A stretch of DNA of 64,000 nucleotides from Promethearchaeota archaeon. GTDB lineage: Archaea > Asgardarchaeota > Lokiarchaeia > Sigyniarchaeales > SOKP01. Position 1 is the first letter of the stretch. Each line of letters begins with the position of its first letter. This document shows positions 6,289-30,324 of this stretch, piece after piece. Where the stretch lies: positions 160,001 through 224,000 of the forward strand of contig JBHLNF010000003.1 in NCBI GenBank assembly GCA_048937405.1. Direction: 5' to 3'. The notes beneath the pieces were generated by a model. That model made no database searches. It saw nothing but the letters and a program-made list of their open reading frames with translations, and was not told the DNA's origin. The position numbers and the translations under genes are program-made.

Positions 6289-6659
6289 TAAATATTTCAA
6301 TTCTAATAGTTGATGATGATACAGATATTTTATTTTTGTATCAAAAAATGATAGAACGTATTGGGTTTGAGGTAATGGGAATAGCTCTTAATGGAGAAGA
6401 AGCTGTACAACTATTTAAATCATTTCAAAGAAAACCTGATATAATTCTGATGGATCATCGGATGCCAAAGAAAAATGGTCTTGAGGCTACAAAAGAGATT
6501 TTAAGTATAAACAATAACTCCAAAATTATTTTTGCGAGTGCGGATAAAAGTGTTGAAAAGGAAGCCCTTTCAGTTGGAGCCATAAGCTTCAAAGAGAAAC
6601 CATTTAGCATGGAAAACCTGAAAAATAATATTCTAAAAGCCATGAATCTAACACAATAA
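6285..6659 (+). CDS. Stand-alone CheY-like response regulator receiver
   Basis: ILIVDDD, phospho-Asp in LMDHRMP, FASA, KP; TTG start overlaps the kinase TGA (TTGA) behind a GGTGGT SD. Confidence 0.92.
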   Translation: MINISILIVDDDTDILFLYQKMIERIGFEVMGIALNGEEAVQLFKSFQRKPDIILMDHRMPKKNGLEATKEILSINNNSKIIFASADKSVEKEALSVGAISFKEKPFSMENLKNNILKAMNLTQ

Positions 6660-7088
6660 CTTCAGATAAATTAGCTTATAGAAATTCTATTTATTTTATC
6701 AACAGTAATTTGATAATATGAAGAGGTATAACATGCTAAATCTTAAAATAAAGGATTTATTTGATCTTACCAAGTTTCTTACTATTTATACCACCTTTAA
6801 TGAGAAAATTATTACAGATATTACTATTCAATGATCTAATCGTGATTAAGAAATTATTGAAACCATAATTATTAATTATTATATTCATGTATTTTTTTGA
6901 CTTTAAAATCTTAAAATTTGTCAATTATTATGATTCTATAAGATTCCTTATTCTTTTGAAATTATAAAATAAAACGATATTCTTAAAAATATATTCTTCT
7001 ATATTTAATTCAGTTAATTTTGCTTTAATTTAGTTACCACATCAAAAGTAAATACAAAGTAAAACAGTAGACTGTTGAGGCTTCTCAG

Positions 7089-8615: not shown

Positions 8616-8986
8616 TAACTATTTCAATTCTAATAGTTGATGATGATACAGACATTCTATTTCTGTATCAAAAAATGATAGAACATATTGGTTTTGAGGT
8701 AGTAGGAATAGCTCATAATGGTGAAAAAGCAGTAGAACTGTATAAATCGCTTCAAAGAAAACCTGATATAATTTTGATGGATCATCGGATGCCAAAGAAA
8801 AATGGTGTTGAAGCCACAAAAGAGATCTTAAGCATATGTAATTATACTAGAATTATTTTTACGAGTGCTGATAAAAGTGTTGAAAAGGAAGCCCTTTCAA
8901 TTGGGGCTGTAAGTTTTTTAGAAAAACCCTTTAGTTTGGAAAGATTAAGGATGAGTATTTTAAATGCCACAAATTTAATTCAGTAA
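8612..8986 (+). CDS. CheY-like receiver; homologous start codon is TTA/ATA rather than TTG (ORF track starts it late at 8675)
   Basis: Open frame from 8612 reads L-I-T-I-S-I-L-I-V-D-D-D-T-D..., collinear with 6285 and 11332; LMDHRMP, FTSA, KP intact. Confidence 0.8.
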   Translation, partial: LITISILIVDDDTDILFLYQKMIEHIGFEVVGIAHNGEKAVELYKSLQRKPDIILMDHRMPKKNGVEATKEILSICNYTRIIFTSADKSVEKEALSIGAVSFLEKPFSLERLRMSILNATNLIQ

Positions 8987-9023
8987 ATATAATAAAAGAG
9001 AATATTCTTTATTTGTTTATATT

Positions 9024-9066
9024 TTTTATCCCTTGATGATTAGGACAGATTTTTCTACAAATATTA
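9024..9066. repeat. 43-bp exact direct repeat with 11744..11786, within about 80 bp of similar sequence after receivers 2 and 3
   Basis: ttttatcccttgatgattaggacagatttttctacaaatatta occurs at both positions, offset 2720 bp. Confidence 0.9.
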
Positions 9067-9427
9067 CAAGTTAAAAAATAATATTAAGTTTTCAACTACA
9101 ATAAATCATCCCAAATCATCATAATGTTCTCATATGAGCTTAAAATTGGTTTTCTTGTTGAAAATACTATAAAAATATGATATGACAAAATTCCTGTTCT
9201 CCAAATCTCTAAGAAGAAAATTTGAATAATTTTTTATTAAACTCAAAGCTGAAAAGTTTTTTCATGAGTTCTATAAAATTCTTGAAAATACCTTCCCTTT
9301 TAATAAATACATATTATTAAAAAGCATTTTTTCTATATTAATCATAATTGATTTTTCCTTATCTATTTACTTTATCTGTTTTAAATCTAGAGGTAAAACT
9401 TTCTAATATATTAAAGTGAATTAGATT

Positions 9428-11335: not shown

Positions 11336-11706
11336 TTACCATTTCAATTCTAATAGTTAATGATGATACAGATCTTCTATTTTTGTATCAAAAAATGATA
11401 GAACATATTGGTTTTGAGGTGGTGGGAATAGCTTTTAATGGAGAAAAAGCAGTAGAACTGTATAAATTATTTCAAAGAAAACCTGATATAATTCTGATGG
11501 ATCATCGGATGCCAAAGATAAAGGGTGTTGAGGTCACAAAAGAGATCTTAAATATAAGTAATCACTCTAAAATTATTTTTAAATGCGCAGATAAAAGTGT
11601 TGAAAAGGAAATCCTTTCAATTGGGGCTGTAAGTTCTTTAGAAAAACCCTTTAGTTTGGAAAGATTAAGGAAGAGTATTTTAAATGTTTCAAATTTAACT
11701 CAGTAA
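11332..11706 (+). CDS. CheY-like receiver with partly degenerate active site
   Basis: IVNDD instead of IVDDD and IFKCA instead of IFAS/TSA; LMDHRMP and KP retained; TTGA overlap with the kinase. Confidence 0.85.
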   Translation: MITISILIVNDDTDLLFLYQKMIEHIGFEVVGIAFNGEKAVELYKLFQRKPDIILMDHRMPKIKGVEVTKEILNISNHSKIIFKCADKSVEKEILSIGAVSSLEKPFSLERLRKSILNVSNLTQ

Positions 11707-14546: not shown

Positions 14547-15893
14547 ATGAAGAGAAAGAATGTTATTATTATTGGTGCTCTTGGTTTTGACTTTCACTTA
14601 TTTAACACAGTTTTTAAGGATAACGAAGAATATGACGTTGTTGCATTTACTATTGCGGGAGAACAAAACATAGGTACTACAGAAGAAACCCAAAGAAAAT
14701 TCCCTGCTGAGCTAGCAGGTAGATTATACCCAAATGGAATTCCGATGGTATCGGAAGAGAGATTAGAAGATTTGATAAAAAAATATCAAGTTGATGAAGT
14801 TGTTTTTGCCTATTCTGATGTATCTCATGAAGAAGTGATGCATAAAGCATCGAGAGCACTTGCAGCTGGAGCAAATTATCGCTTAATTTCAGGCAGATTT
14901 ACGCAACTTAAAGCAAATAAACCTGTAGTTGCTATTTGTGCAGTAAGAACTGGATGTGGAAAAAGTCAAGTTTCTAGAGCGACATATAGATATTTGAAGA
15001 GCAAGGGATATAAGGTTGTGGCAATTCGCGAACCAATGCCTTATGGTGATTTAATTCAACAAAATGTCATGAGATTTGAAAAATATGAGGATTTAGATAA
15101 ATACGACTGTACAATTGAAGAACGCGAGGAATATGAACCTTATATTGAACAGGGTTTAATTATTTATTCTGGTGTAAATTATGAAAAAATCATACGTGAA
15201 GCTGAAAAAGAAGCCGATGTGATTATTTTTGATGGTGGAAACAACGAAATTTCATTCTACATCCCTGATCTGTTATTTATTGTGGTAGATCCCTTAAGAC
15301 CAGGGCATGAAGTTTTATATCATCCTGGAGAAGTTAACGTTCGATATGCAGATGCGTTTGTCATTAATAAGATGAATAGTGCGAAAGCTGAAGATGTAAA
15401 GATTGTAGAAGATAATTTAAACGCTCTAAATCCAAATGCTACTAAAATTTTTACAAATTCAATTGTAACAGTTGAGAATAATATTGATCTAAACGGTAAA
15501 AAAGTAATTGTCGTTGAGGACGGTCCTACATTGACTCATGGCAATATGTCTATTGGAGCAGGATTTGTAGCAGCAATCAATAGCGGAGCAGAAATAATCG
15601 ATCCTAGACCTTATTTAACTGGAGCAATGAAATTAGTTTTCGAAGAATTTCCTCACATAACTCAAATCGTTCCAGCAATGGGCTATAATGAACAACAGAT
15701 TAAAGATATGGAAGAAACTTTAAATAAGGCTGAAGCTGAAATTGTTATCGATGGTAGTCCAATAAATCTTGAAAAATTAATAAAATGTAACAAACCAATT
15801 GTACGAGTCAATTACGATATCGAATCAATAAAAAGTCCAACAATAGAGCAAGTACTTGACAAGTTTATTGTTAAATGTCTAAAGAATTCTTAA
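14547..15893 (+). CDS. arcE: Arginine synthetase (ArcE)-like P-loop protein (family often annotated cyclic 2,3-diphosphoglycerate synthetase/GTPase)
   Basis: DFHLFN, ELAGRLYPNGIP, FAYSDVSHEEVMH, AVRTGCGKSQ P-loop, CTIEEREEYEP, DGGNN, EDGPTLTHG, PAMGY; OTC and carbamate kinase genes nearby. Confidence 0.8.
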   Translation: MKRKNVIIIGALGFDFHLFNTVFKDNEEYDVVAFTIAGEQNIGTTEETQRKFPAELAGRLYPNGIPMVSEERLEDLIKKYQVDEVVFAYSDVSHEEVMHKASRALAAGANYRLISGRFTQLKANKPVVAICAVRTGCGKSQVSRATYRYLKSKGYKVVAIREPMPYGDLIQQNVMRFEKYEDLDKYDCTIEEREEYEPYIEQGLIIYSGVNYEKIIREAEKEADVIIFDGGNNEISFYIPDLLFIVVDPLRPGHEVLYHPGEVNVRYADAFVINKMNSAKAEDVKIVEDNLNALNPNATKIFTNSIVTVENNIDLNGKKVIVVEDGPTLTHGNMSIGAGFVAAINSGAEIIDPRPYLTGAMKLVFEEFPHITQIVPAMGYNEQQIKDMEETLNKAEAEIVIDGSPINLEKLIKCNKPIVRVNYDIESIKSPTIEQVLDKFIVKCLKNS

Positions 15894-16080
15894 ATAATTA
15901 ATCTAAAATTTTTTTGAGATTAGGCTCTCTGTAAAATTTCTTAATCCTCAATCATATAACATAAAAAAATATTCTTATAAATAAAATCTAATATAATATT
16001 ATTAGCTATATTTATGCTATTTTTATTTTCATCTTTATTAAAAAAAGAGACTGCCTGAATTGTTTTAGGAGATTGTTAAC

Positions 16081-17232
16081 ATGGTATATAATCTAGATGA
16101 ATCTATGGAAACATTTAAAATAATTACAGAACAATCCCTCGTTGGAATAATCATAATACAGGATGGTCTATTTAAATATTTCAATGATAGACTCGTTGAA
16201 ACTACGGGATATTCAGCAGAGGAAATCAAAAGTTGGGCTCCTAATGAATTTGAGAAAACAATTTATCCTGAAGATCGGGAATTTATTATGGAAATGGCAC
16301 GCAAAAAACAAGCGGGTGATCCAAATGTTCCCCATCAATATTCATATAGAGCGATAAGAAAGAATGGAGAAGTCTATTGGGCTGAAGTTTTTTCAAAAAC
16401 TATAAATTATAAAGGGCGTCCAGCAGATTTTTTAATAGGGATTGAGATTACAGATAAAGTCAAAGCAGAACAAAAATTAATAGAAACTAAGGAAAAATAT
16501 CAAAAAGCGTACCATCAAGCAGAATTCTATAAAGATCTATTTATACATGATATAAATAATACTCTTCAGAGTCTTTATTCATCTATCCAATTACTCGATA
16601 TAGACTTAGAGAATATTAAAAAAGATAATGAGATCATAGAACTCATTAATATTATGTACAGACAGGTCAAAAGAGGTGTAAATTTAATCTCTAATGTTCG
16701 TAAACTATCTCAATTGGAAGATCATGAGATTTCAATTAGGGAAATAGATCTCCTTGAATTTTTAAAACGATCTATAGAATTTATAAAGAATTCATTTCAA
16801 GATAAGAAAATTCAAATCAAAATTGATGGATTTAACGAGAAGATCTTGGTAAAAGGTAATGAGTTACTTCAAGATGTATTCGAGAATATTCTTATCAACT
16901 CAGTGAGACATAATAACAATGATATCATAGAAATATTTATTAAAACATCAAGATTAAAAAAGGAAGAGAATGATTACTGCAAAATAGAATTTATTGATAA
17001 CGGAAACGGTATTGAGGACGTTCGGAAAGAAAAAGTCTTAGATCGGGTAGATCTTAATTTGAAAACAACATATGGGATGGGATTAGGGTTATCATTAGTC
17101 AAAAAAATAATTGAGAATTTTGGAGGAAAAATTTGGATTGAGGATAGAGTTAAAAATGATTACTCTAAGGGAACTAATGTAAATTTATTACTGCTAGAGT
17201 TACCTCTTCATAAACAAAATTTTTATAGTTGA
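16081..17232 (+). CDS. PAS sensor histidine kinase (1 PAS)
   Basis: Single PAS, FIHDINN, NSVRHN, DNGNGI, GMGLGL; paralog of the three upstream kinases. Confidence 0.92.
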   Translation: MVYNLDESMETFKIITEQSLVGIIIIQDGLFKYFNDRLVETTGYSAEEIKSWAPNEFEKTIYPEDREFIMEMARKKQAGDPNVPHQYSYRAIRKNGEVYWAEVFSKTINYKGRPADFLIGIEITDKVKAEQKLIETKEKYQKAYHQAEFYKDLFIHDINNTLQSLYSSIQLLDIDLENIKKDNEIIELINIMYRQVKRGVNLISNVRKLSQLEDHEISIREIDLLEFLKRSIEFIKNSFQDKKIQIKIDGFNEKILVKGNELLQDVFENILINSVRHNNNDIIEIFIKTSRLKKEENDYCKIEFIDNGNGIEDVRKEKVLDRVDLNLKTTYGMGLGLSLVKKIIENFGGKIWIEDRVKNDYSKGTNVNLLLLELPLHKQNFYS

Positions 17233-17263
17233 TGATGATACAGACTATATATTTTTGTATCAA
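17225..17263 (+). pseudogene. Remnant of the cognate receiver gene (5' fragment only)
   Basis: ata gtt gat gat gat aca gac tat ata ttt ttg tat caa = IVDDDTDYIFLYQ, matching IVDDDTDILFLYQ of 6285..6659; similarity then ends. Confidence 0.8.
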
Positions 17264-17421
17264 CTAAAAATGAATTTATCCTTATTGGTTATCTAATACC
17301 AAAGATTAAACTCGATGTGTGCGTTATTTAAATAATATTTAATTCTTAAGGCTCATTAAATCATCTATTGTTTAAAATGATGTTTTTAAATTAGTAATTA
17401 AGACTTAGTAGTGGGAAATTT

Positions 17422-19602
17422 ATGATTCTAGCAGAAATAAAATATGAAATCCAAGAAATCCGAAGAGGGTATGCAAATCGGACTTTATATATCAATCTTA
17501 CTAAAAATGAAATTTCTATAAAGCCTGTTTCTGAAGAAATGAAAGATAAATTTATTGGAGGAAAAGGTTTTGATTTATGGCTTATGTGGAACTCTCTTCC
17601 AAAAGATCGAATTGTAAAATGGGATGATCCTGAGAATGAAATTTGCATCTCTTCAGGTCCATGTGGAGGGAGTATTTTCTATCCTGGTTCTGGGAAATCA
17701 ATTGTAACTTCAATATCTCCTTTAACAGGTATAATTATAGATAGTAACGTAGGTGGTTATTTTGGACCATATCTTAAATTTTCTGGATTTGATGCAATTG
17801 AGATTCAAGGAAAAGCCAAAAACGATATAATCGTATATATTGATGGAATTCAAGGATTAATTCAAATAGAAGAAGTAGAAGATTCAGATGGATACTCAAA
17901 ATATTCACATGAACTCACTCAACAGTTAACAGAGAAATATGCTAAAGAGGATGCAGAAAAAAGACAAATTTCAGTTGTTAGTAGTGGTCCTGCAGCCAAA
18001 CATTCGAAGTGGGGGATGTTAAATTTTTCTTGGTATACGCCATTGCGTAATCATGCTTCTGTTAAGCAAGCAGGGAGAGGTGGAATAGGGACTGTCTTTA
18101 GTAATAAAAAAATAAGAGCACTAGTATGTCGTTCTCCTAAAGTATCAATAAAATCAAACAATCCCGCAGATTTAGAAACCGCCCGAGAATTAGGAAAAAC
18201 TCATAGTAAAGATATTATGGAAGTCGATCCTTCACAGAATGAAATGAGGAGAGTTGGAACTGGTTATTTACCAGAGATAATGAATGTTGTTGATCTACTT
18301 CCAACTGAAAACTTCAGGTACGGCTCTCATAAAGAAATAAAAGATAAAAATATAGCTTATAATCGTGAAGCAATGCGTAAAGTTTATCACATAGGAGAAG
18401 GAACGGATGGATGTTGGATTGGATGCACCATGAGTTGTTCACATTATACAACTGGTCATGAAGTTTTAACAGGTCCTTTTAAAGGTCAAGTAGTAATTGT
18501 AGACGGCCCAGAATATGAAACTATAGCTGGATGTGGATCAAATTGGGGAGTATGGGATGTAAAATGGATTCTTGAAATAAATTTTTATTGCGATACTTAT
18601 GGATTAGACACCATTTCTGTAGGGACTGGCATTGCTTTTGTTATGGAATGCTATGAACAAGGTATTTTAAACAAAGAAATCACGGGAGATCTTGAACTTA
18701 AATTTGGAAATGTTGATGCTGCTTTAGAGTTAATACATCAAATGGCACGAGGAGATGGTTTTGGTGTAATTGTAGGAAAAGGTATCAGGGAAATGAAAAA
18801 ATATTTTGCAGAAAACTATGGTGCTGATCCTCAATTTCTACATGATATTGGAATGGAGCATAAGGGATTAGAATTTTCAGAATATATGACAAAGGAATCA
18901 CTCGCTCAGCAAGGAGGATATGGTTTAGCTCTTAAAGGACCACAACACGACGAAGCATGGTTGATATTTGAGGATATGGTAAGAAACACAATTCCAACAT
19001 TTGAAGATAAAGCTAAAGCGTTACTCTGGTTTCCTTTATTTCGTACGTGGTTTTCTTTAAATGGACTTTGTAAACTCCCTTGGAATGATGCTATTGGTCC
19101 TCAAAATAAAGAGCTTCCAATAAAAGATCCAGAAACAGGTGAGTTACTTCAAGCTCGAGTCCCTTATCATGTTGAATGGTATGCTAAATATTTTTCAGCT
19201 GTTACTGGAAAAAACTCAAATCCAGATGATCTAATCATTATGTCTGAAAGAATATACAATTTTCAGAGAATTTTTAATATACGATTAGGGCAAGGTTTAC
19301 GTGAAGGTGATTCAAATCTTCCCTATAGAGCAATGGGTCCCGTGACACCTTTAGAATATGAAAGTCGTCAAGAAAGATATGATACCCAACTCAAGGAATT
19401 GGGTATTGATATTTCTAATAAGACTACTAAAGAAAAGATTAAAATTCTTAGAAATCATCGTGAAGAACAGTATTTAAAACTTCAAGATGCAGTTTATAAA
19501 GAACGTGGATGGAATGAGAAAGGTTCCCCAACTATTAAAAAAATTAAGGAATTGGGAATTGACTATAAAGATGTCATAAAATTCATAAAACCTCATCAAT
19601 GA
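17422..19602 (+). CDS. aor: Tungsten-dependent aldehyde:ferredoxin oxidoreductase family protein
   Basis: FIGGKG, SPLTG, DSNVGGYFG, GFDAIEIQGK, AGRGGIGTV, CWIGCTMSC, DGPEYET, CDTYGLDTIS. Confidence 0.9.
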   Translation: MILAEIKYEIQEIRRGYANRTLYINLTKNEISIKPVSEEMKDKFIGGKGFDLWLMWNSLPKDRIVKWDDPENEICISSGPCGGSIFYPGSGKSIVTSISPLTGIIIDSNVGGYFGPYLKFSGFDAIEIQGKAKNDIIVYIDGIQGLIQIEEVEDSDGYSKYSHELTQQLTEKYAKEDAEKRQISVVSSGPAAKHSKWGMLNFSWYTPLRNHASVKQAGRGGIGTVFSNKKIRALVCRSPKVSIKSNNPADLETARELGKTHSKDIMEVDPSQNEMRRVGTGYLPEIMNVVDLLPTENFRYGSHKEIKDKNIAYNREAMRKVYHIGEGTDGCWIGCTMSCSHYTTGHEVLTGPFKGQVVIVDGPEYETIAGCGSNWGVWDVKWILEINFYCDTYGLDTISVGTGIAFVMECYEQGILNKEITGDLELKFGNVDAALELIHQMARGDGFGVIVGKGIREMKKYFAENYGADPQFLHDIGMEHKGLEFSEYMTKESLAQQGGYGLALKGPQHDEAWLIFEDMVRNTIPTFEDKAKALLWFPLFRTWFSLNGLCKLPWNDAIGPQNKELPIKDPETGELLQARVPYHVEWYAKYFSAVTGKNSNPDDLIIMSERIYNFQRIFNIRLGQGLREGDSNLPYRAMGPVTPLEYESRQERYDTQLKELGIDISNKTTKEKIKILRNHREEQYLKLQDAVYKERGWNEKGSPTIKKIKELGIDYKDVIKFIKPHQ

Positions 19603-19639
19603 ATAATCTTATTCGTAATTATTTTAGACTTGACTATAA

Positions 19640-21724
19640 ATGGAAAATATACCCTCACATCCTATTTTAGAGATTCCGACCAGAAAAAAGATTTCATTTA
19701 GCTTTGATGGTAAAAAGTTAACTGCATTTGAAGATATGGTTATATCTTCAGCTCTTTTTCTTAACAAAATAAAAATTTTTGGTCATCATGTTAAAGATAA
19801 TAGTCCAATGGGTATTTTTTGTGCTAATGGTCAATGCTCACAATGTAATGTTATTGTTAATGGAATTCCTCAAAAAGCATGTATGACACCTCTAAAAGAT
19901 GATATGGTAATTAAAAGATGTAATGGATTACCGGAGCTACCTGCTATCGACAATCCTGTCATTGTTTCCAATTCTAAAATTTTTGACACTGAAGTACTTG
20001 TAATTGGTGCAGGTCCTGCGGGATTATCAGCTACTAAGATATTAGGAGAAAATAATGTTAAAGTGATTCTAATAGATGACAAAGCTGAACTTGGAGGTAA
20101 ACTGGTGCTCCAAACACATAAATTTTTTGGCTCACAAGAGGATGTTTATGCTGGTAAACGAGGGATACAAATTGCGAAAATTTTAGGTAAATCTATTAAA
20201 GCTTTATCAAGTGTTCAAACATGGTTAAATTCAGTTTGCGTAGCAGTTTTTAGTGATGGTTTAGTTGGATTCTTAAAAGAAAATAAAGAGTATACATTGA
20301 TAGAACCTAGATATTTATTAATTGCTACTGGAGCTAGAGAAAAAATGCTGATTTTCCCAGGAAATACACTACCAGGGGTATATGGTGCTGGTGCTTTTCA
20401 AACATTAATAAATCGTGATTTAGTAAAAGCCGCAGACAAAATATTTATAGTTGGAGGTGGAAATGTAGGACTTATAGCAGGATATCATGCTATTCAAGCG
20501 GGAATAGATGTTATTGGTTTAATTGAAGCATTACCTCAATGTGGAGGTTATAAAGTCCATGAAGACAAACTTAAAAGATTGGGGGTGCCAATCTATACAA
20601 GTCATACAATATTATCTGCTAATGGTAAAAATAATGTAGAATCTATAACCATTGCTCAAATTGATAAAAATTTTAATATTATTTCTGGAACTGAAAAGAC
20701 ATATGCCTGTGATACCATTTTAATTGCCGTAGGTTTGAATCCTGTTGATGAGTTCTTTCAAAAAGCAAAAAAGTTTGGATTTAAAGTTTGTGTGGCAGGT
20801 GATGCTCAAGAAATAGCAGAAGCTTCAGCTGCAATATTTACAGGGAAAATTGAAGCTTTAAAGATTCTTAAAAAAATGGGAATCAATATCTCAGAAAATA
20901 TTAGCAAATTAGAGGATTTTGCTAAAATTATGAAGACTAAACCTCCTCAACCAATTAAATCTGAAATTAAATTTAAAGAAGAGGGAATATACCCTGTTTT
21001 TTATTGTAATCAAGAGATCCCATGTAATCCTTGTACTACGGTATGTGAACAAGAACAAATTGAGACTCTTGATGATTTGATAACACAGTTACCTTATTTT
21101 AAATATGAAAAAGATTGTATTGGATGTGGAAAGTGTGTTGCTGTATGTCCAGGGTTAGCTGTTGTATTAATTGATTATCGCAAAGATCGAAATAATCCAT
21201 TGCTTACTTTTCCATTTGAGTTATCTGAGGAAAAGTTAGAAAAGGGTCAAGAGATAATTGTTGTCAGTAATGAAGTAGAATTAGGAATATTTGAAATTCA
21301 TAGATCCCGAATAATAAAAGAATTTCCTAAAACTCAACTAATCACTGTTAAATTGCCTTCTGAAATTGCTAAAAAGGCAGTAGCAATTAAACTTTCTCAA
21401 ACTAAATTCATTGAACCGATAGATTTATATCAAAACGCTATAACTGATGATGACACAATTGTATGTAGATGTGAACGTGTATCGGTAGGGGAAATTCGAA
21501 AGTGGATACGTTCAGGAGTTAAGGATTTCAATGAACTAAAGGCATTAACCAAAGTAGGAATGGGAGCTTGTGGAGGAAAAACATGTACGCCGCTAATTGA
21601 AAGAATATTTAGAGAAGAGGGTATATCAACTGATGAAATTATACCAGGAACAAAACGTCCTTTATTTATTGAAGTTCCGATGGGTATATTTGCTAATACT
21701 AAAAATAAATATGAGGAACGTTAA
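19640..21724 (+). CDS. Proline dehydrogenase/sarcosine oxidase alpha-like multidomain flavo-Fe-S subunit
   Basis: N-terminal 2Fe-2S (FCANGQCSQC...ACMT), GAGPAG, ATGARE, GGGNVG, two 4Fe-4S motifs (CNQEIPCNPCTTVC, CIGCGKCVAVCP), C-terminal BFD-like CRCE...GMGACGGKTC. Confidence 0.8.
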   Translation: MENIPSHPILEIPTRKKISFSFDGKKLTAFEDMVISSALFLNKIKIFGHHVKDNSPMGIFCANGQCSQCNVIVNGIPQKACMTPLKDDMVIKRCNGLPELPAIDNPVIVSNSKIFDTEVLVIGAGPAGLSATKILGENNVKVILIDDKAELGGKLVLQTHKFFGSQEDVYAGKRGIQIAKILGKSIKALSSVQTWLNSVCVAVFSDGLVGFLKENKEYTLIEPRYLLIATGAREKMLIFPGNTLPGVYGAGAFQTLINRDLVKAADKIFIVGGGNVGLIAGYHAIQAGIDVIGLIEALPQCGGYKVHEDKLKRLGVPIYTSHTILSANGKNNVESITIAQIDKNFNIISGTEKTYACDTILIAVGLNPVDEFFQKAKKFGFKVCVAGDAQEIAEASAAIFTGKIEALKILKKMGINISENISKLEDFAKIMKTKPPQPIKSEIKFKEEGIYPVFYCNQEIPCNPCTTVCEQEQIETLDDLITQLPYFKYEKDCIGCGKCVAVCPGLAVVLIDYRKDRNNPLLTFPFELSEEKLEKGQEIIVVSNEVELGIFEIHRSRIIKEFPKTQLITVKLPSEIAKKAVAIKLSQTKFIEPIDLYQNAITDDDTIVCRCERVSVGEIRKWIRSGVKDFNELKALTKVGMGACGGKTCTPLIERIFREEGISTDEIIPGTKRPLFIEVPMGIFANTKNKYEER

Positions 21725-22891
21725 ATGGTTGAGTATGATGTAATCATTATAGGCGCAGGCAGTGTTGGTGTTCCAACGGCTTTAGCTACTGCCAATGATG
21801 GGTTAAAAACACTTGTAATTGATTCATTACCCTCTGTAGCACAAGCAGATAATAAGCATGCTATTGGTGGAATTAGAGCTACTCACTCTCATAAGGGAAA
21901 AATATGGTTATGTCAAAGATCAATTGAAATTTTTTCTTCCTGGGAAGAACGATATGGAGATGATATTTGGTGGACTCAGGGAGGTTATACATTTTTAGCA
22001 TTTACTAAAGAACATGAAAATCAGTTAAAGGAAACTGTAAAACTTCAAAAAAGCTATGGATTAAATATTAATTATGTTAATGCTTATAAAATTAAGGATT
22101 TAATACCAGGTATCAATGATGATAATCTATTAGGGGGGACATATAGCCCTGAAGATGGCAATGCTTCCCCTCTATTATCATTACATGCATTTTTTCGAAG
22201 ATCAAAAAATTTAGGAGTAATTTATCAATTCAAGGAAAAAGTTACAGCTATAATAACTAAAAATAATAAAGTAATTGGGATCAAAACTACAAAAAGTCGA
22301 TATAAAACGCAATCAATTATTAATGCAGCAGGCGCTCATGCTAAAGAAATTGGAAATATGGTTGGCATAGATACCCCAGTAGAACCAGAATCACATGAAG
22401 CAGGAATAACAGAACCAGTAAAAAAATTCTTTACTCCAATGGTAGTGGATATTAGGGTTTGTTATGATCCCAAATTTGGAAACTCGAGGAATTATTATTT
22501 CTATCAAAATAAAGAGGGTAAAATACTTTTTTGTATAACTCCTGATCCAAATATTATAGGAATGGATCGTAATGAAACTAGCTCCTTTCTACCTCAGATC
22601 TCCAAAAGAATGATACAACTTCTTCCACGATTAAGGAACATAAAAGTTAGACGAACATGGCGAGGATTATATCCAATGACGTCTGATGGGAATCCAATCA
22701 TAGGAAAAGTAGATGAAATGAAAGGATATATTAATGCTGTTGGAATGTGTGGTCAAGGATTTATGCTGGGACCAGGATTAGGAGAACTTCTTAGTCGTAT
22801 TTTGACAGATAAAAAAACATTGAGAGATAAAGAGATCTTAGAATCTCTCTGCTATAATCGAGATTTCGGTGTAGAAGAAGAATTGAAATAA
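21725..22891 (+). CDS. FAD-dependent amino-acid oxidoreductase (DAO family; proline dehydrogenase/sarcosine oxidase beta-like)
   Basis: IIGAGSVG, GGIRA, INAAGA, WRGLYPMTSDGNPIIG, GMCGQGFMLGPG; abuts the alpha subunit (TAA ATG). Confidence 0.85.
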   Translation: MVEYDVIIIGAGSVGVPTALATANDGLKTLVIDSLPSVAQADNKHAIGGIRATHSHKGKIWLCQRSIEIFSSWEERYGDDIWWTQGGYTFLAFTKEHENQLKETVKLQKSYGLNINYVNAYKIKDLIPGINDDNLLGGTYSPEDGNASPLLSLHAFFRRSKNLGVIYQFKEKVTAIITKNNKVIGIKTTKSRYKTQSIINAAGAHAKEIGNMVGIDTPVEPESHEAGITEPVKKFFTPMVVDIRVCYDPKFGNSRNYYFYQNKEGKILFCITPDPNIIGMDRNETSSFLPQISKRMIQLLPRLRNIKVRRTWRGLYPMTSDGNPIIGKVDEMKGYINAVGMCGQGFMLGPGLGELLSRILTDKKTLRDKEILESLCYNRDFGVEEELK

Positions 22892-22977
22892 CTATATTAA
22901 AAGAAATAATCTCAACTGATTTATATCTAATATTCCTTTTTAATATTAAATTATCAAAGAAAAATTAAGTTTTTAAA

Positions 22978-23910
22978 ATGGTTCGACATCTATTAAAAGT
23001 CTCTGATTTTTCAAAGAATGAGTGTGAGAAGGTTATTGATAAAGCAATCGAATTAAAGAAAAATTCTAAGAAATTTAATTCAACCTTACAAGGTGAAACA
23101 CTTTTAATGTTTTTTGAAAAACCTTCTTTAAGAACAAGAATTTCATTTGAAACAGGAATGCAGCAATTGGGGGGACATGCAATTTTCTATTCGATTAAAG
23201 ACTCACCTTTAGGTAAAAAAGAAAACATATCAGACACAGCAAAAGTTGCTTCTAGATTTGTAAATATTATTGCTGCTAGAGTTTTTAAGCGACAAGTCAT
23301 AATGGATCTTGCTAAATATGCCGATGTGCCAGTTATAAATATGTTGGATGATTTTGCCCATCCATGCCAAATTTTAGGAGACTTTCAGACCATTAAAGAG
23401 AAGAAAAATAGTTTAACTAACATGAAACTCTCTTATTTTGGTGATGCTTATAACAATGTTACTTATGATTTAATGCGAATCTGTGCGATGTTTGGATGGA
23501 GAATGGTCGTTGCATGCCCTAACGCTCCAGAATATTCACCTGAACAAATAGTTTTAGATGAAGTTTCTAATTTATCTAAAGAAACTGGTGCTGAAATACA
23601 AGTTATTCATGATGCCATGGAAGCTGCTCGAGATTCTGATGTTATATATACCGATAGTTGGATGAGTTATGGAATACCTCAAGAACAAGAAGAAGAACGG
23701 AAAAAGGTTTTTATGCCTTTTCAAGTCACATCCTCAATTATGAGAGTTGCAAAATCAGATGCTATATTCATGAATTGTTTGCCAGCAATGAGAGGTTATG
23801 AACAAACTGCTGATGTTATTGATGGTCCTCAATCAATTGTTTATGATCAAGCAGAAAATAGATTGCATATCCAAAAAGCAATTATGCTCTTTTTACGTGG
23901 CAAAATTTAG
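22978..23910 (+). CDS. arcB: Ornithine carbamoyltransferase
   Basis: FEKPSLRTR, HPCQ, YTDSWMSYG, NCLP (variant of HCLP), QAENRLH. Confidence 0.92.
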   Translation: MVRHLLKVSDFSKNECEKVIDKAIELKKNSKKFNSTLQGETLLMFFEKPSLRTRISFETGMQQLGGHAIFYSIKDSPLGKKENISDTAKVASRFVNIIAARVFKRQVIMDLAKYADVPVINMLDDFAHPCQILGDFQTIKEKKNSLTNMKLSYFGDAYNNVTYDLMRICAMFGWRMVVACPNAPEYSPEQIVLDEVSNLSKETGAEIQVIHDAMEAARDSDVIYTDSWMSYGIPQEQEEERKKVFMPFQVTSSIMRVAKSDAIFMNCLPAMRGYEQTADVIDGPQSIVYDQAENRLHIQKAIMLFLRGKI

Positions 23911-24022
23911 ATTTAGATCATGTCTATTAAATATATATATTGGATAATAATATTTTTAACTAGATTATACAAAAATAATTCTTTATGTATCACTATACTT
24001 TAACTTGTTTCAATAAGATAAT

Positions 24023-25579
24023 ATGGGCGAACAAGAATTAGAAAAGAAATTAAAGCCTGAAGAATTAGTTTATGCAGAAAACTTTGTTGAAGAGGGAGAA
24101 TTTGATAAAGCTCTTAAACTTTTAAATATATTTGAAAAAAAAAAAAATATTCTTTATCATGATAAATTATCTTGCTATCATTTAATGGGACAAATATTAA
24201 TATGGAAGGGAAACTATGAAGAAGCTATTAAAATAAGTGAAGAAATGTATAATATATCCCAATTATATAAAGATGAACTCCACTCAATAGATGCTTTAAT
24301 TTTACTCTCTCATATTTATACTTATCAGTATAATGATGATATGGCTCTTGATAAAATTAATCAATCGGAAAATCTATTAGAAAAAGTCTCCAAAGAATCA
24401 TCAGAAATTTTATTAAAAAGAGAAGCTCATTTGTTCTATTGTAAAGGTTTAATTTATTTTCATAAAGGTAATATTGATCAAGCTTTTGAGTATCTAGAAA
24501 GAAGCCTAATTCTGCGAAAAGAACTCGGTAATAAACAAGAAATCGCTGAATCTCTTTATAGTATGGCACGGATTTTAGCTTATAATGGGGAATTTGATCG
24601 AGCTTTTAACATTTTGGAACATAGTTTGACATTCGCAACGGAAAGTAAAAGCATATTTTATATGGGGCTAAACTATAATACTCTTGGGGTAATATATTTA
24701 TGGAAAGGTAAAATTAATCAAAGTCTAAAAAATTTTGAAAAAAGCCTAGCAATTTTCAAGAAAGTTAAAAATAATCTTGTTATTTGTGGTCTTCTCAACA
24801 ATATAAGCGAAGCATATTATTTAAAAGGGAATTTAAATCAAGCTTTAAATTGCTTAGAACATAGTTTATTGTTAGAAAACGATATTGATATTGGACACTT
24901 AAAAATTAATACCCTTGATACAGCAATTCAATTCGCTCTTGAAATTAAAGATACTAATCGGGCTTTAGAATACTTTCATGAATTAGAAAAGATCAATGAT
25001 CAAGAGGATAGTAAAAAAATTAAATTCATATACCTCTATAATAAGGCTTTAATACTGAAATCGAGTTCGTTGTATAGTAATCAAATTAGAGCTAGGGAGA
25101 TATTAAAGAAGATCGTTGAAAAAAAAATCCCACTTCTATTCGAAACTTCAGTTAGGGCCTTGCTTAATTTATGTGATATATTATTAACCGAATTACATGA
25201 GACAACTAACTTGGAATTGTTGGATCAAATTCAAATTTATATTAATCAAATATTGGGTATTGCTCGGAATCAAAAATTATATTGGCTATTGGTAGAATCA
25301 TATTTATTGGAAGTAATTTTAGATTTGATAAAATTAGATTTAAAGAAAGCTCAAAAAACATTAATCGAAGCTCAAAGAATAGCTGAAAAATATGGTATGA
25401 ATCAATTAGTTGGAAAAATATCGATAGAACAGAATAAGTTATACAAACAAAAAAATAGATGGTTTAAATTGAAGGATTCAGATAAAACAATAATAGAACT
25501 TGCAAATTTAATCCCATTAAAGGAACAATTAAGCTATATGCTCAAAAAGCGTGAAATCTTTAAAAAATTTAATATCTAA
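24023..25579 (+). CDS. Tetratricopeptide repeat protein
   Basis: Repeated helical TPR consensus units (KGNIDQAFEYLERSL, GKINQSLKNFEKSL, GNLNQALNCLEHSL). Confidence 0.85.
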   Translation: MGEQELEKKLKPEELVYAENFVEEGEFDKALKLLNIFEKKKNILYHDKLSCYHLMGQILIWKGNYEEAIKISEEMYNISQLYKDELHSIDALILLSHIYTYQYNDDMALDKINQSENLLEKVSKESSEILLKREAHLFYCKGLIYFHKGNIDQAFEYLERSLILRKELGNKQEIAESLYSMARILAYNGEFDRAFNILEHSLTFATESKSIFYMGLNYNTLGVIYLWKGKINQSLKNFEKSLAIFKKVKNNLVICGLLNNISEAYYLKGNLNQALNCLEHSLLLENDIDIGHLKINTLDTAIQFALEIKDTNRALEYFHELEKINDQEDSKKIKFIYLYNKALILKSSSLYSNQIRAREILKKIVEKKIPLLFETSVRALLNLCDILLTELHETTNLELLDQIQIYINQILGIARNQKLYWLLVESYLLEVILDLIKLDLKKAQKTLIEAQRIAEKYGMNQLVGKISIEQNKLYKQKNRWFKLKDSDKTIIELANLIPLKEQLSYMLKKREIFKKFNI

Positions 25580-25750
25580 TGATTGCCCATATTCATTTTC
25601 AATTAAACTTTACAAAAGGAAAAAAAATATAGATTTGAAGTATATTGATTTAGGTGTGGTAAATCATGAAACCATTAATCTAGATTAATAGATTCTTCGT
25701 AGTATTTTTTATTTAAAGATTTAACGTACCACTCAGTCTTTCTCATGTAA

Positions 25751-26752
25751 TTAAGTATGAAATAATAATATTCCTTTTTTTTTTTTAATTAATATTGTTG
25801 ATATTGCTATAATTATTCCAATAATAACTATTGAATATCCTGGAATTATTGTTTTTGGTTGCTTACATTCAAAATTATTATCTTTCAAGTTATTCCCTGA
25901 AGTTCCTGATTCGTAATAATTCAGGAAGCTCCCGCAGAAAAGGTTTCCTATTATATTATTATAAGAACTTCCTATTAACCATAATCCTCGATCGATATTA
26001 TTATGACCTTTATTATACAAGATTTGGTTATAATCACTATGTATTTCTAGAAGCATTCCTGTAAAACCATTACTACTTACAATGTTTTCTGATATTGTAT
26101 TATTCACACATCTGGATAAATGTATCCCATATCCTCTTGGTTGGGCTCCATCTTTTCTTATATAGCTATTGTTATTTATTATATTACCAGAAATCGTGTT
26201 TTTAGTACAATCTTTCATAATAATTCCGTTACAACCATTATCAGAGCAATTATTGTTAATGACTGCACCATTACTAACAGTTTCAAGTCGTAATCCTGCA
26301 TCAGTCAGATCAGTTCCACTATTGTAAAAGCTACAGTATCTAAGTGCGAAATATACCTCAGAAAACTTGATCTCAAGACAGTTTCCAACACCATTACCAT
26401 CTATACTAATATTTTCAATTATATAAGGATTGGACCAACTTCCATCACCTCCACCAAACCAATATTGACTCTCAACCCAAGTCCAATTATGAGCTCCAAC
26501 ACCTCCAGCAAGTCCTTCAATAATAAATGGACTCAATTCAAAATAGCTTGAAATTTTCAGCTTTTCATTATTGAAATCATTGAAGAATTCATCATTTCTT
26601 AAATCATTTTTATGAGGTAGTAATATTATTAAAGAAAAACAAATTGAGAGTGTTAGGAATGTGAGGAGTATACCTAAATTTCTGTTTGCTTTCATTATTC
26701 TGATTCTCACTTTTTTTTGATCAAATCGTCTTTTTTTAGTAGATTTCTTCAC
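25751..26752 (-). CDS. Cell-surface NosD/CASH parallel beta-helix protein with IPGY-TM-Lys C-terminal sorting tail (start may be downstream at MKANRN)
   Basis: GDGSWSNPYIIENISID, NNTISxN repeats, C-terminus IIPGYSIVIIGIIIAISTILIKKKK. Confidence 0.8.
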   Translation of the reverse strand: MKKSTKKRRFDQKKVRIRIMKANRNLGILLTFLTLSICFSLIILLPHKNDLRNDEFFNDFNNEKLKISSYFELSPFIIEGLAGGVGAHNWTWVESQYWFGGGDGSWSNPYIIENISIDGNGVGNCLEIKFSEVYFALRYCSFYNSGTDLTDAGLRLETVSNGAVINNNCSDNGCNGIIMKDCTKNTISGNIINNNSYIRKDGAQPRGYGIHLSRCVNNTISENIVSSNGFTGMLLEIHSDYNQILYNKGHNNIDRGLWLIGSSYNNIIGNLFCGSFLNYYESGTSGNNLKDNNFECKQPKTIIPGYSIVIIGIIIAISTILIKKKKGILLFHT

Positions 26753-26923
26753 ATTAAATGATACAGTATGAAGAAAATGGACAAATGATACTGTTCCATT
26801 CTATGTGATATTTGAGACACACTCATATTTAAATGTTACCATCACTATTTAATTTATAAAGAAAATAAAATTACATTAAAACAAAATTAACAATTGTTTT
26901 ATAGTTATTAATTAAAGTTCAAA

Positions 26924-27715
26924 TTGATTATCTTTATGAAAAACAATCAAAATGATAAATTAGAAAGAACTGATAAAAGAAATATTGATAATTTAGATAA
27001 AGGAACGGGAGATTTAACAATTAAACCTAAATTTTATGGAGACCTCTATTTGGGAAAAGATTGGGAATCTTTAATTTCTAAACATACATTACGCTATGAT
27101 CTATGGATATTACTCAATCTATACCAGGAATTAAATGTTAGTCAAATAAGTAAATATATAAAACAAAGCAAATCTACGGTATCAAGAGTTTTAAAAGCTA
27201 TGGAAAGTGATGGTCTTCTAGAATCTAGACGAGGAAAAATAAAAGTAGGAGAACGAGAAAGAATTCCACCAAAATACTATCATATTAACGAATTATATAA
27301 GAAAGAGGAGGAGATCGAAAAAGATATAAAGGAAGTACCTTCAGATCCGCTAAAATTGCATGAATTCTTACTTTCAGAAATTAGAACCTGTCGAAGTGCT
27401 ATATACAATGTTATTAGATTGGTTAATTACTTAAGTGCGGGAATAAATTATCTTGATGATCATTTAGAAGAGATTGGGAAAGCTAAAGAGATCTATGTAA
27501 AGTTATTGTCAGGAATAAATGAACCAGAATTTAACTTTATATTTTTAGATAAAAAAAGATTTAGGAAATTTTATGATCTTCGTTTAGAATATATGTTGAA
27601 ATTAAAAAAATTAATTATGGAACAAGATTTAGACGCAGATAGTGCCTTCATCTATTTTGATTCTTTTTTGCCATTAAAAACTCTTTTAGAATTGTATAAA
27701 AAAGAAAAACTATAA
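26924..27715 (+). CDS. Winged helix-turn-helix transcriptional regulator (ArsR/MarR-like)
   Basis: ELNVSQISKYIKQSKSTVSRVLKAMESDGLL HTH and PPKYY wing. Confidence 0.75.
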   Translation: MIIFMKNNQNDKLERTDKRNIDNLDKGTGDLTIKPKFYGDLYLGKDWESLISKHTLRYDLWILLNLYQELNVSQISKYIKQSKSTVSRVLKAMESDGLLESRRGKIKVGERERIPPKYYHINELYKKEEEIEKDIKEVPSDPLKLHEFLLSEIRTCRSAIYNVIRLVNYLSAGINYLDDHLEEIGKAKEIYVKLLSGINEPEFNFIFLDKKRFRKFYDLRLEYMLKLKKLIMEQDLDADSAFIYFDSFLPLKTLLELYKKEKL

Positions 27716-28086
27716 TTTAATTTTTTTATTGAATGAATGGGGAAATTTATTAAAAAAATTAAATAAGCAGGGGAATTTAATAAATTTATTTTTACTTTAA
27801 ATACGCAGATACTCTCGATGTTCACTTATAAATTGATAATCGCCCTGGGTTTATACGAGTAGGCTTATTTTATCCCAATATACTCGTTCAGAACGAGATG
27901 ATATGACACTTACAGGAGCAAGGAAAACATCTTCCGGGATTAATCAGTTAAGATTTCATCTAATAAAAATTTGATATTAGAAATAATAAGAAAGACTCTA
28001 AATTCTCTGAAAAAATTTTAAATATTAAGTTAAATATAATCTATTTTTCATTTACTTTTATATAATTTTACCTAGAGGTCTAATTA

Positions 28087-28998
28087 TTGAAAACATTAAT
28101 TATAGCCCTTGGTGGAAATGCTTTAATAAAATTTGGAGAAGAAGGTACAACTGAGGAACAATTTCGAAATTTGAAGGTACCTATTAGCCAAATTGCAGAA
28201 TTAGCAAAAGAATATAATATTATTATTACACATGGCAATGGTCCACAAGTTGGAAATCTTTTATTACAACAGGAAGCAACTGCATTTGTCTCAAAAAGTC
28301 CACTACAAATATTAGTGGCAGAAACTCAAGGTCAAATTGGATTTATGATTGAAAGTACTTTAGACGAAGAACTCATGAAATTAGGATTGGATGTAGAAAA
28401 GTTCTTCCTTACTGTTTTAACTTATGTAGAAGTTGATCCTAAGGATCCTGCATTTAGAAATCCAACGAAACCAATTGGACCTGCCTATCCAGTACGTACG
28501 AAATTAGGCCAAATCAAAACAGCTAAGGGATGGCGTCGTGTAGTTCCTTCTCCTAATCCAATAAAGATTTACCAATGGCGTGAAATAAAAAAACTTATGG
28601 AACTTGGAAGTTGGATTGTAATAGCATGTGGTGGAGGAGGTATTCCTGTCATAAAAGAGGGGAATAATTTATATGGAGTTGAAGCTGTTATTGATAAGGA
28701 TCTTGCTAGTGCTAAATTAGCAGAACAAATCAAAGCAGATATTTTACTGATAGCAACAGATGTTGAGAAGGTTGCTTTAAATTATATGAAATCTAATGAG
28801 AAATTATTGGATAGACTATTAGTATCAGAAGCAGAACAATATTTAGAAGAAGGACAATTCCCTGCAGGAAGTATGGGTCCAAAAGTGAGAGCTGTAATAA
28901 ATTTTTTAAAGTCTGGAGGGAAGCAAGCTATAATTACTTCTATTAACAAGATAAAAGATGCTCTGAAAGGTAAAGCAGGAACTCACTTTTTTATATAA
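28087..28998 (+). CDS. arcC: Carbamate kinase
   Basis: IALGGNAL, THGNGPQVG, PTKPIGP, RRVVPSP, GGGGIPV, EAVIDKD, GSMGPKV. Confidence 0.95.
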   Translation: MKTLIIALGGNALIKFGEEGTTEEQFRNLKVPISQIAELAKEYNIIITHGNGPQVGNLLLQQEATAFVSKSPLQILVAETQGQIGFMIESTLDEELMKLGLDVEKFFLTVLTYVEVDPKDPAFRNPTKPIGPAYPVRTKLGQIKTAKGWRRVVPSPNPIKIYQWREIKKLMELGSWIVIACGGGGIPVIKEGNNLYGVEAVIDKDLASAKLAEQIKADILLIATDVEKVALNYMKSNEKLLDRLLVSEAEQYLEEGQFPAGSMGPKVRAVINFLKSGGKQAIITSINKIKDALKGKAGTHFFI

Positions 28999-29052
28999 AG
29001 TAATTTATGAATTTATAATACTTCAAAATCTTATAGATAATAATTTTTACAA

Positions 29053-30324
29053 TTAAGAAACTAGTACTTTTTCTATATTTTCGATAGCCCAATCAATTTC
29101 ATCCTTGGTAATGATTAATGGAGGGGCTAATCTAATAATTGTGGAATGAGTATCTTTTGCCAAAATACCATTATCCTTGAATTCTTCAACAATTTGTCTA
29201 GCATCTTCTTCAAATTCAATTGCCATTAGTAATCCTTTTCCTCTAATTTCTTTAATAGGTATTTTAGTTCTTTTAAAAGAAATCTCTTGTAATCTTTTCA
29301 AAAAATAATTACCCATCTCTTTAGCTCGTTCAGAAAGATTCTCTCGTAAATGAAGATCTATAGATTTCATCCCGATAGCAGAAGCTAAAGGATTTCCTCC
29401 AAAAGTGCTTCCATGAGTTCCTGGAGTTATAACCTCTGGACCAATAATTTCGTTTCTACTTACACATGCAGAAATAGGATATACTCCACCACCAAGAGCT
29501 TTACCTAATAAGATCATATCTGGTTTCACCTCCTCATGTTCGCACGCTAAAAATTTTCCAGTTCGACAAAACCCAGTTTGAACTTCGTCAGAAATTAGCA
29601 ATACATTATATTTTGTACAGATTTCTCTTACTTTTTTTAAATAGCCTTTTGGAGGAATCTTTACACCAGCTTCTCCTTGAATAGGTTCTACTAAGAAAGC
29701 TGCTACTTTTTCAGGACCAATTTCTAAAATTGCATTTTCTAATTCCTCAGCATTTCCATAGGGGATGATATTAAATCCTGGTGTGAAGGGTCCAAAATTT
29801 CCGTAATATCGTACTGCTGAAATATCAGAACTAAATCCTATAATAGTAACCGTCCTTCCATGAAAATTATTTCTGCATACAATTATTCTAGCCTCATCTT
29901 TGGGAATTTTTTTCTTAATATAACCCCAAGCCCGTACCACCTTTATCGCTGTTGAAACTGCTTCAGTTCCAGTAGTCATTGGAAGAGACATTATACCAGT
30001 ATTCTTAGGATCATAAATCTGTGGTCCTATCACTTCTGCCAGCATTTTTAGGAAAGGTCCCATCATAGTATTATGAAATGCTCGAGAGGTAAGAGTAACT
30101 ACATTTGCTTGTTCTTTTAATGTTGCGACGATTTCAGGATGACAATGACCCAAATTTTGACTTGAGTAGGCAGATAAGCAATCTAAATATTTTTTTCCTT
30201 CTGGATCATATACCCAAACTCCTTCAGCACGAGAAATTACAACTGGAATGGGATGATAATTGTGAGCACCATATTCCAAATCAATTTCAATATAATCATT
30301 TGATCTTAGCATGAAATATCCCAT
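29053..30324 (-). CDS. rocD: Ornithine-oxo-acid aminotransferase (class III PLP)
   Basis: YGAHNYHPIPVV, LSAYS..N.GHCHP, LTSRAF, EPIQGEAGV, DEVQTG, LGKALGGG, HGSTFGGNPL. Confidence 0.92.
   Translation of the reverse strand: MGYFMLRSNDYIEIDLEYGAHNYHPIPVVISRAEGVWVYDPEGKKYLDCLSAYSSQNLGHCHPEIVATLKEQANVVTLTSRAFHNTMMGPFLKMLAEVIGPQIYDPKNTGIMSLPMTTGTEAVSTAIKVVRAWGYIKKKIPKDEARIIVCRNNFHGRTVTIIGFSSDISAVRYYGNFGPFTPGFNIIPYGNAEELENAILEIGPEKVAAFLVEPIQGEAGVKIPPKGYLKKVREICTKYNVLLISDEVQTGFCRTGKFLACEHEEVKPDMILLGKALGGGVYPISACVSRNEIIGPEVITPGTHGSTFGGNPLASAIGMKSIDLHLRENLSERAKEMGNYFLKRLQEISFKRTKIPIKEIRGKGLLMAIEFEEDARQIVEEFKDNGILAKDTHSTIIRLAPPLIITKDEIDWAIENIEKVLVS

Follow-up and report, generated by a model that had tools for sequence, protein, structure and literature searches.

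The window analysed here is a stretch of 64,000 nucleotides from a Promethearchaeota archaeon (GenBank assembly GCA_048937405.1, contig JBHLNF010000003.1, positions 160,001 to 224,000 of the forward strand). A gene cluster at its positions 14,547 to 30,324 begins with a homolog of arginine synthetase (ArcE) and further encodes an aldehyde:ferredoxin oxidoreductase of the AOR family, the two subunits of a proline dehydrogenase-like (PDH-like) complex, ornithine transcarbamylase (OTC), carbamate kinase (CK) and ornithine aminotransferase (OAT) (Table 1). These genes had been named in an original prediction made from the sequence alone, and all of them were recovered from the list of open reading frames (ORFs) as intact ORFs. 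Four further genes that the prediction had not listed, encoding a PAS histidine kinase, a TPR protein, a NosD-like protein and an HTH regulator, interrupt the cluster. The start codon of PDH-beta directly abuts the stop codon of PDH-alpha with a gap of 0 bases, and AOR and PDH-alpha are separated by 38 bases. The cluster likely serves Promethearchaeales as an accessory module that breaks down arginine, and probably proline, without a deiminase. Genome-wide counts refer to the host genome (4.47 Mb, 29 contigs, 100% complete), and "the order" denotes the GTDB order of the host, which includes Candidatus Harpocratesius repetitus, placed by NCBI in Promethearchaeales.

Table 1. Genes of the cluster and their positions in the window
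Gene product	Position	Strand	Basis and remarks
ArcE (arcE; arginine synthetase homolog, divergent E-type)	14547-15893	+	448 aa; identity to Thermococcus orthologs, trees, AF2 model
PAS/HisKA/HATPase histidine kinase	16081-17232	+	Pfam; insertion limited to a few genomes, not a conserved part of the cluster
AOR-family tungsten/molybdenum-pterin aldehyde:ferredoxin oxidoreductase	17422-19602	+	726 aa; Pfam AFOR_N E 4e-46, AFOR_C E 4e-95
PDH-alpha-like flavo-iron-sulfur subunit	19640-21724	+	694 aa; Pfam Fer2_4, Pyr_redox_2, 4Fe-4S dicluster, BFD-like 2Fe-2S
PDH-beta-like FAD dehydrogenase	21725-22891	+	Pfam DAO E 5.5e-56
OTC (arcB/argF)	22978-23910	+	TIGR00658, 366.5 bits vs cut-off 280.85
TPR protein	24023-25579	+	Pfam; non-conserved insert
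NosD-like beta-helix protein	25751-26752	-	Pfam; non-conserved insert
wHTH regulator	26924-27715	+	Pfam; non-conserved insert
Carbamate kinase (arcC)	28087-28998	+	TIGR00746, 370.6 bits vs cut-off 358.25
Ornithine--oxo-acid aminotransferase (rocD-type OAT)	29053-30324	-	TIGR01885, 525.7 bits vs 378.4; convergent on CK

Gene order in related genomes

Gene order was compared in 18 regions from relatives in two families, with the ORFs labelled by means of the window proteins. In thirteen regions, drawn from four genera of the window's family and from two sister-family genomes, arcE, AOR, PDH-alpha, PDH-beta, OTC and CK follow one another on one strand with OAT convergent, and arcE abuts AOR in several of them. 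A tight same-strand arcE-OTC-CK-OAT operon was found in the other five, all from the sister family. OAT lies next to CK in all relatives compared. In most of them OTC is next to CK or has only a TPR gene in between, and no histidine kinase stands between arcE and AOR, so that the window holds the most interrupted version of the cluster among the compared regions. Synteny across Asgard genomes, which had been proposed as a check on the prediction, was thus seen in all 18 regions. When species-representative genomes were searched with AOR alone, 76 named Promethearchaeota loci were retrieved, and about 47 of these had the same neighbours in the same order. The grouping of these genes is not due to chance.

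Across the genomes of the order, which are related and do not represent independent samples, ArcE was present in 34 of 61, and a true CK accompanied it in 32 of the 34 ArcE-positive genomes vs 5 of the 27 ArcE-negative ones. The module is patchy even in the genus of the host (6 of 11 genomes) and behaves as an accessory unit. A natural fusion of 766 aa (P0128) joins an N-terminal CK, 39% identical to the window CK, to a canonical ArcE domain. Among 120 loci of canonical-type ArcE in other phyla, OTC or CK was found within 6 kb in only 16, which indicates that the tight clustering is a feature of this order.

Upstream of the cluster, at 73-11706, the window encodes two ABC-transporter ATPases and an acyl-CoA dehydrogenase-like protein. 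Three PAS histidine kinase genes come next, and a receiver gene follows two of them. The kinase within the cluster (16081-17232) has the same PAS/HATPase make-up as these kinases.

Identity of ArcE, OTC, CK and OAT

The ArcE-like protein matched no Pfam or NCBIfam family, and among solved structures its sequence gave only a weak match to cyclic 2,3-diphosphoglycerate synthetase (cDPGS; E 0.047). Its homologs number more than 8000, and identity is 82-95% for those in Asgard metagenome-assembled genomes (MAGs). NCBI calls near-identical Asgard proteins "cyclic 2,3-diphosphoglycerate synthase" and JGI calls them "predicted GTPase", the very mislabelling that the prediction had anticipated. ArcE itself is TK2200 of Thermococcus kodakarensis, earlier annotated as hypothetical or as a GTPase (Michimori, Yokooji and Atomi 2024, PMC11032458). 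The same study noted that the predicted fold of TK2200p resembles LpxK (4EHY), that its similarity to cDPGS is low, and that arcE homologs are found all through Thermococcales, with Lokiarchaeota as further carriers.

For comparison with Thermococcus, five named Thermococcus/Thermococcaceae genomes (MAGs) were picked by a CRISPR-repeat pattern. Each of the five encodes exactly one full-length homolog of the ArcE-like protein, with 56-57% identity over residues 2-446 (E 1e-163 to 3e-169; BLASTP 519 bits). The ArcE-like protein contains a Walker A P-loop, AVRTGCGKS, of which RTGCGKS forms residues 134-140, and it is encoded by a single-copy gene in the host genome. Its AF2 model (pLDDT 93.7) has cDPGS 8oru as the nearest fold (Foldseek E 1e-17, 17% identity), followed by LpxK 4ehy (E 1.6e-8). 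The latter is the same entry that PMC11032458 names for TK2200p, which supports the ArcE identity.

The database names and the nearest solved fold would favour a second reading, in which the first gene encodes a cDPGS or GTPase and its arc neighbours are coincidental. The ArcE-like protein is similar in length to the cDPGS of Methanothermus fervidus (8ork/8oru), but the identity of 17% and the score of 16-17 bits stand against 519 bits to the Thermococcus ArcE orthologs, and the genomic context differs. One Thermococcus genome encodes cDPGS and an ArcE-family protein as two distinct genes. Its genuine cDPGS matches 8ork at E 1e-132 but matches the ArcE-like protein of the window at only E 8.5e-4 and 17 bits. 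In a tree of 79 rows rooted on cDPGS, this outgroup sits on a branch of 3.3 substitutions outside all 78 ArcE-family rows, and the ArcE-like protein is nested deep within the ArcE family. The grouping with true cDPGS that was to count against the prediction was therefore not seen, and the conserved operons joining arcE with OTC and CK likewise speak against coincidence. The bit scores, the 8ork match and the outgroup position rule out the database identity, whose probability we regard as negligible. Judged by its sequence, the first gene belongs to the arginine synthetase (ArcE) family, and its product is predicted to catalyse the reversible reaction of arginine, ADP and Pi to citrulline, NH3 and ATP.

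Several side observations concern these genes. An 806-aa ArcE homolog (P0202) is interrupted by an intein with Intein_splicing and LAGLIDADG domains. In two relatives, C-terminal fragments of arcE occur as short duplicates just downstream of the intact gene (G182:C7:70283-70591; G118:C43:31287-31427). The repeat pattern of Pyrococcus/Thermococcus CRISPR arrays returned almost only Thermococcales genomes otherwise, and it also fits a CRISPR array of about 80 repeats in a Candidatus Asgardarchaeum abyssi MAG (JBECUL010000027.1).

OTC, CK and OAT each pass the cut-offs of the NCBI curated equivalog models. The best solved relative of the OTC is 3grf (E 2e-92), the catabolic OTC of Giardia lamblia, and the next is 1a1s of Pyrococcus furiosus. 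The OTC motifs SxRTR and HPxQ are present, SMG is changed to SYG and HCLP to NCLP as in 3grf, and the unusual motifs KPSLRTR, DSWMSY and FMNCLPA are common to both proteins. The CK is most similar to 1e19 among solved structures (E 4e-81), and solved OATs match the window OAT at E 1e-115 to 1e-128. The OAT is distinct from the ArgD of the host, which sits in a separate biosynthetic operon. OTC and CK are each encoded by a single copy in the host genome, as determined for the former by tblastn.

In agreement with the prediction, no arginine deiminase gene (arcA) was found in the window, nor in the complete host genome when two models were used. Across the 61 genomes of the order, the only PF02274 matches were weak ones, to ORFs about 255 aa long from 15 genomes, none of them the host. 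These ORFs of the amidinotransferase/ADI superfamily (e.g., G104:C14:937-1344 and G200:C44:142733-143101) are too short for ArcA. In one genome of the order (G200), OTC and CK occur together with one such ORF, and ArcE was not found. Three genomes that are 98-99% complete (G013, G054 and G109, two of them in the genus of the host) yielded no OTC at E<=1e-60, which suggests either arginine auxotrophy or an unrecognised carbamoyltransferase.

The AOR, the PDH-like complex and the proposed route to glutamate

Among solved structures, the AOR of the cluster is related to 1aor (E 1e-51) and to formaldehyde ferredoxin oxidoreductase (FOR) 1b25 (E 1e-48). It shares the two-domain AFOR architecture with P. 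furiosus FOR and AOR, but its matches to them reach only E 1e-48 to 1e-51, it has about 100 extra residues, and it falls into a separate clade. Nearly all members of this clade come from Promethearchaeota; two Bacillota/Clostridia orthologs have 53-55% identity.

The best solved relative of PDH-beta is 1y56_B (E 3.5e-52, next best 6e-24), and PDH-alpha matches the sarcosine oxidase alpha subunit SoxA (2gag_A, E 4e-24) as well as PH1363 (1y56_A, E 3e-16); 1y56 is the L-proline dehydrogenase of Pyrococcus horikoshii. As in PDH1 of that organism, a beta subunit homologous to PH1364 and an alpha subunit homologous to PH1363 are encoded side by side. The NCBIfam model for D-proline dehydrogenase is far under its cut-off for the pair (25.8 bits vs 600). 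With PDH1 (PH1363/PH1364) and with the heteromeric group of D-hydroxyproline dehydrogenase, opine oxidase and HCN synthase, the window complex shares a DAO-family beta and a Pyr_redox_2 alpha. It differs in that its alpha subunit is fused to N-terminal 2Fe-2S, 4Fe-4S dicluster and BFD-like 2Fe-2S domains, and in that the pair in the window's family is always preceded by AOR and followed by OTC.

The fate of ornithine was examined further in the host genome. No P5C (pyrroline-5-carboxylate) dehydrogenase was found, the only gene of the ALDH family being best matched by lactaldehyde dehydrogenase and far under the P5C dehydrogenase cut-offs, and no ornithine cyclodeaminase was found either. In a Bacillota MAG (JAWSUV010000021.1, 181-9121), a same-strand operon encodes, in order, an amino-acid (SNF) symporter, a proline-racemase family protein, Pyr_redox_2, Fe-S/BFD and DAO proteins, a polyferredoxin, and finally an AOR 53% identical to that of the window. 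This operon links the same AOR clade to a proline-racemase family gene and a PDH-like complex, and thereby lends independent support to the proposed AOR substrate. The Clostridia ortholog is flanked by a ferredoxin gene on one side and by aminotransferase and 2-oxoacid:ferredoxin oxidoreductase genes on the other. In P. furiosus, the related FOR has its lowest Km for a C5 dialdehyde and binds glutarate, and C5 semi- or dialdehydes are its presumed substrates (PMC12096430). As a side observation, the PDH-alpha-like protein of the Bacillota operon is split, and proline or hydroxyproline may be processed by this operon in a ferredoxin-linked manner.

Taken together, the cluster could encode the following pathway. 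ArcE would convert L-arginine, ADP and Pi to L-citrulline, NH3 and ATP, OTC would cleave citrulline by phosphorolysis to ornithine and carbamoyl phosphate, and CK would provide a second ATP, after which OAT would convert ornithine to glutamate-gamma-semialdehyde (GSA) in equilibrium with P5C. Homology points to each of these steps. From the linkage of the genes, AOR may oxidise GSA to glutamate with reduction of ferredoxin, standing in for the NAD-dependent P5C dehydrogenase that the host lacks, and the PDH-like complex may add to this P5C from proline. Overall, each arginine would yield two ATP by substrate-level phosphorylation together with low-potential electrons. The prediction of two ATP per arginine followed by oxidation of ornithine thus finds support from homology up to OAT, whereas oxidation by way of AOR was deduced from the clustering. 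The assignment of AOR and the PDH-like complex to these roles seems to us about evenly balanced between right and wrong. A broader proposal, which we put forward tentatively and hold slightly less probable than that assignment, is that the AOR clade consists of dedicated C5 semialdehyde:ferredoxin oxidoreductases. Together with the Fe-S-rich PDH-like complex and the E-type ArcE described below, they would form an undescribed route from arginine and proline to glutamate that dispenses with arginine deiminase and NAD-dependent P5C dehydrogenase and yields two ATP and reduced ferredoxin per arginine.

Divergence of the window ArcE, alternative readings and known systems

Several observations weigh against the catabolic reading. 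No arginine transporter gene was found within the cluster, and the cluster OTC is the only one of the host and so also serves biosynthesis. The AOR fails the equivalog models of characterised subfamilies (NF007354, 100 bits vs 868; GAPOR, 44 vs 1300). The sister family has an AOR ortholog (57-59% identity) and the PDH pair (63-65%) as well, but at loci apart from the arc operon and from one another, suggesting that the window's family brought them into its arc operon; the genes next to this unlinked AOR, for a NikR-like regulator, an ADP-forming acyl-CoA synthetase-like protein and an M20 peptidase, offered no clear clue to function. The link from the window ArcE to the assayed TK2200 runs via other Thermococcus genomes. 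Moreover, canonical ArcE is highly conserved (65-82% identity between Thermococcus and bacteria such as Anaerolineae), and the motifs GAAGRDFH, RHPMPY and WDGGNND, typical of Thermococcus and most members, were invariant in 11 aligned canonical-type sequences. The window ArcE has GALGFDFH, REPMPY and FDGGNNE instead. It belongs to a subfamily, here called E-type, in which R is replaced by F, M or Y in the first motif, H by E in the second and D by E in the third, and in which a five-residue insertion of the EQN[ILV]GT type is gained. No assayed E-type ArcE was found in the searchable literature, where the characterised enzyme is of the canonical type, and to our knowledge the E-type enzyme has never been assayed.

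The H-to-E and D-to-E changes always co-occur in E-type sequences, which form one side of a branch with 98% SH-aLRT support in a broader tree. The archaeal members come from the order of the host, from Hel- and Undinarchaeales, from Aenigm-, Micr- and Diapherotrites archaea, and from haloarchaea (Halospeciosus), and the others from WOR-3 bacteria and from eukaryotes such as Creolimax fragrantissima. Of 201 Asgard genomes sampled, an ArcE-family gene is present in 167, with 70-90% identity to the window ArcE within the order and 47-57% outside it. All five out-of-order matches that were checked by motif are canonical. Asgard genomes have either the E-type or the canonical form, nearly all in single copy, and the few double matches with listed positions are ArcE fragments. 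This distribution suggests that the E-type replaces canonical ArcE as an equivalent rather than as a paralog.

The eukaryotic E-type homologs comprise that of C. fragrantissima (EukProt), another EukProt transcript, and a third on a contig beside a tetraspanin gene; one eukaryotic homolog has an N-terminal extension and an adjoining amino-acid kinase gene. In a first tree the eukaryotic sequences were sister to the Promethearchaeales clade. With broader sampling this placement was not retained, and they were polyphyletic within the E-type, among DPANN and Asgard sequences, so we claim no specific inheritance from Asgard archaea to eukaryotes. In a WOR-3 bacterium (JABLXZ010000002.1, 3410-6350), a gene for a 514-aa aldehyde dehydrogenase, the usual size of a P5C dehydrogenase, precedes an E-type arcE gene by 47 bases.

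With the cDPGS identity set aside above, three alternatives to the catabolic reading were weighed. The joint alteration of three motifs that line the P-loop/Walker B region, together with the gained insertion, could mean that the E-type is a neofunctionalised paralog acting on another guanidino or ureido compound or nucleotide rather than on arginine and citrulline with ADP and ATP, and in three loci examined the E-type genes of DPANN archaea and WOR-3 bacteria have no OTC or CK neighbours. However, the either-or distribution in Asgard genomes is what equivalent replacement would produce, the E-type gene heads the arcE-OTC-CK-OAT operons, and an E-type gene on another contig adjoins an amino-acid kinase gene. 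The carbamoyltransferase of the cluster also scores as OTC (366 bits vs 281) and not as putrescine carbamoyltransferase (288 vs 500); with OAT in the operon, agmatine/putrescine chemistry was set aside on the same grounds. We therefore regard neofunctionalisation as very unlikely. Much the same low probability attaches to a variant that keeps the upstream path and ends in dismutation of P5C, with AOR oxidising GSA and its electrons passing through the Fe-S domains of a PDH-like complex running in reverse to reduce P5C to proline, a fermentation that would be redox-balanced without H2. The close packing of the AOR and PDH genes and the four predicted Fe-S sites of the alpha subunit, suited to accept electrons from AOR or ferredoxin, are in keeping with it, but proline oxidation is the reaction of the characterised homologs (P. 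horikoshii PDH1, 1y56), and the Bacillota operon with its transporter and racemase-family genes resembles a system for substrate uptake and oxidation.

The direction of the core pathway deserves more weight, although an anabolic module still appears unlikely to us. CK would then supply carbamoyl phosphate, OTC citrulline, and ArcE would form arginine from citrulline, NH3 and ATP, with OAT, PDH and AOR giving ornithine from proline or glutamate. PMC11032458 describes the ArcE reaction as reversible (K about 10) and as supporting arginine synthesis in vivo in T. kodakarensis. In the host genome, argH-argJ-argB-argD-argC-argG lie on contig 7 and carB on contig 2. This biosynthetic operon lacks argF, so the single cluster OTC must complete the argHJBDCG route and work in both directions. 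Since argG, argH and carB are present, arginine synthesis needs neither ArcE nor CK, and this independence, combined with the reasoning of PMC11032458, assigns ArcE to the breakdown of arginine to citrulline. CK and a rocD-type OAT are catabolic markers, and near-complete genomes from the genus of the host lack the module. A catabolic role of the cluster is most likely.

Compared with the T. kodakarensis pathway (ArcE TK2200 with ArcB and ArcC, PMC11032458), the cluster shares the three enzymes, the absence of arcA, the P-loop fold class, the weak similarity to cDPGS and the misannotations. It differs in the altered motifs of its divergent ArcE, in the operonic clustering of the arc genes, which have no arc neighbours at five Thermococcus loci examined, in the built-in OAT, AOR and PDH-like complex, and in a host that also has ArgG/ArgH and carbamoyl phosphate synthetase. 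The classical arginine deiminase (arcABC) pathway, including the arginine dihydrolase pathway of Giardia, shares with the cluster the reactions of OTC and CK and the formation of ATP from carbamoyl phosphate; here the first step would be non-hydrolytic, ArcE would conserve a second ATP, and there is no deiminase gene, the genome-wide search for arcA suggested by the prediction having been negative. A literature search on Asgard arginine catabolism returned nothing relevant. In its arcE/arcB/arcC core the cluster is the arginine synthetase pathway as already published, and PMC11032458 had also stated its presence in Lokiarchaeota. The divergent enzyme subfamily, the conserved operons that include OAT, and the AOR and PDH-like complex between arcE and arcB appear to be new.

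These results extend the arginine synthetase pathway, two years old, to a second, sequence-divergent enzyme subfamily, and they correct a systematic misannotation as "cDPG synthase" or "GTPase" through which the pathway goes unnoticed in hundreds of genomes. They also point to a specific candidate for the physiological substrate of an orphan clade of tungsten-type AOR. Cultured Asgard archaea ferment amino acids in syntrophy, and models of the origin of eukaryotes rest on that metabolism. Two ATP per arginine and low-potential electrons from a conserved operon would constitute a concrete, testable energy module for an Asgard lineage.

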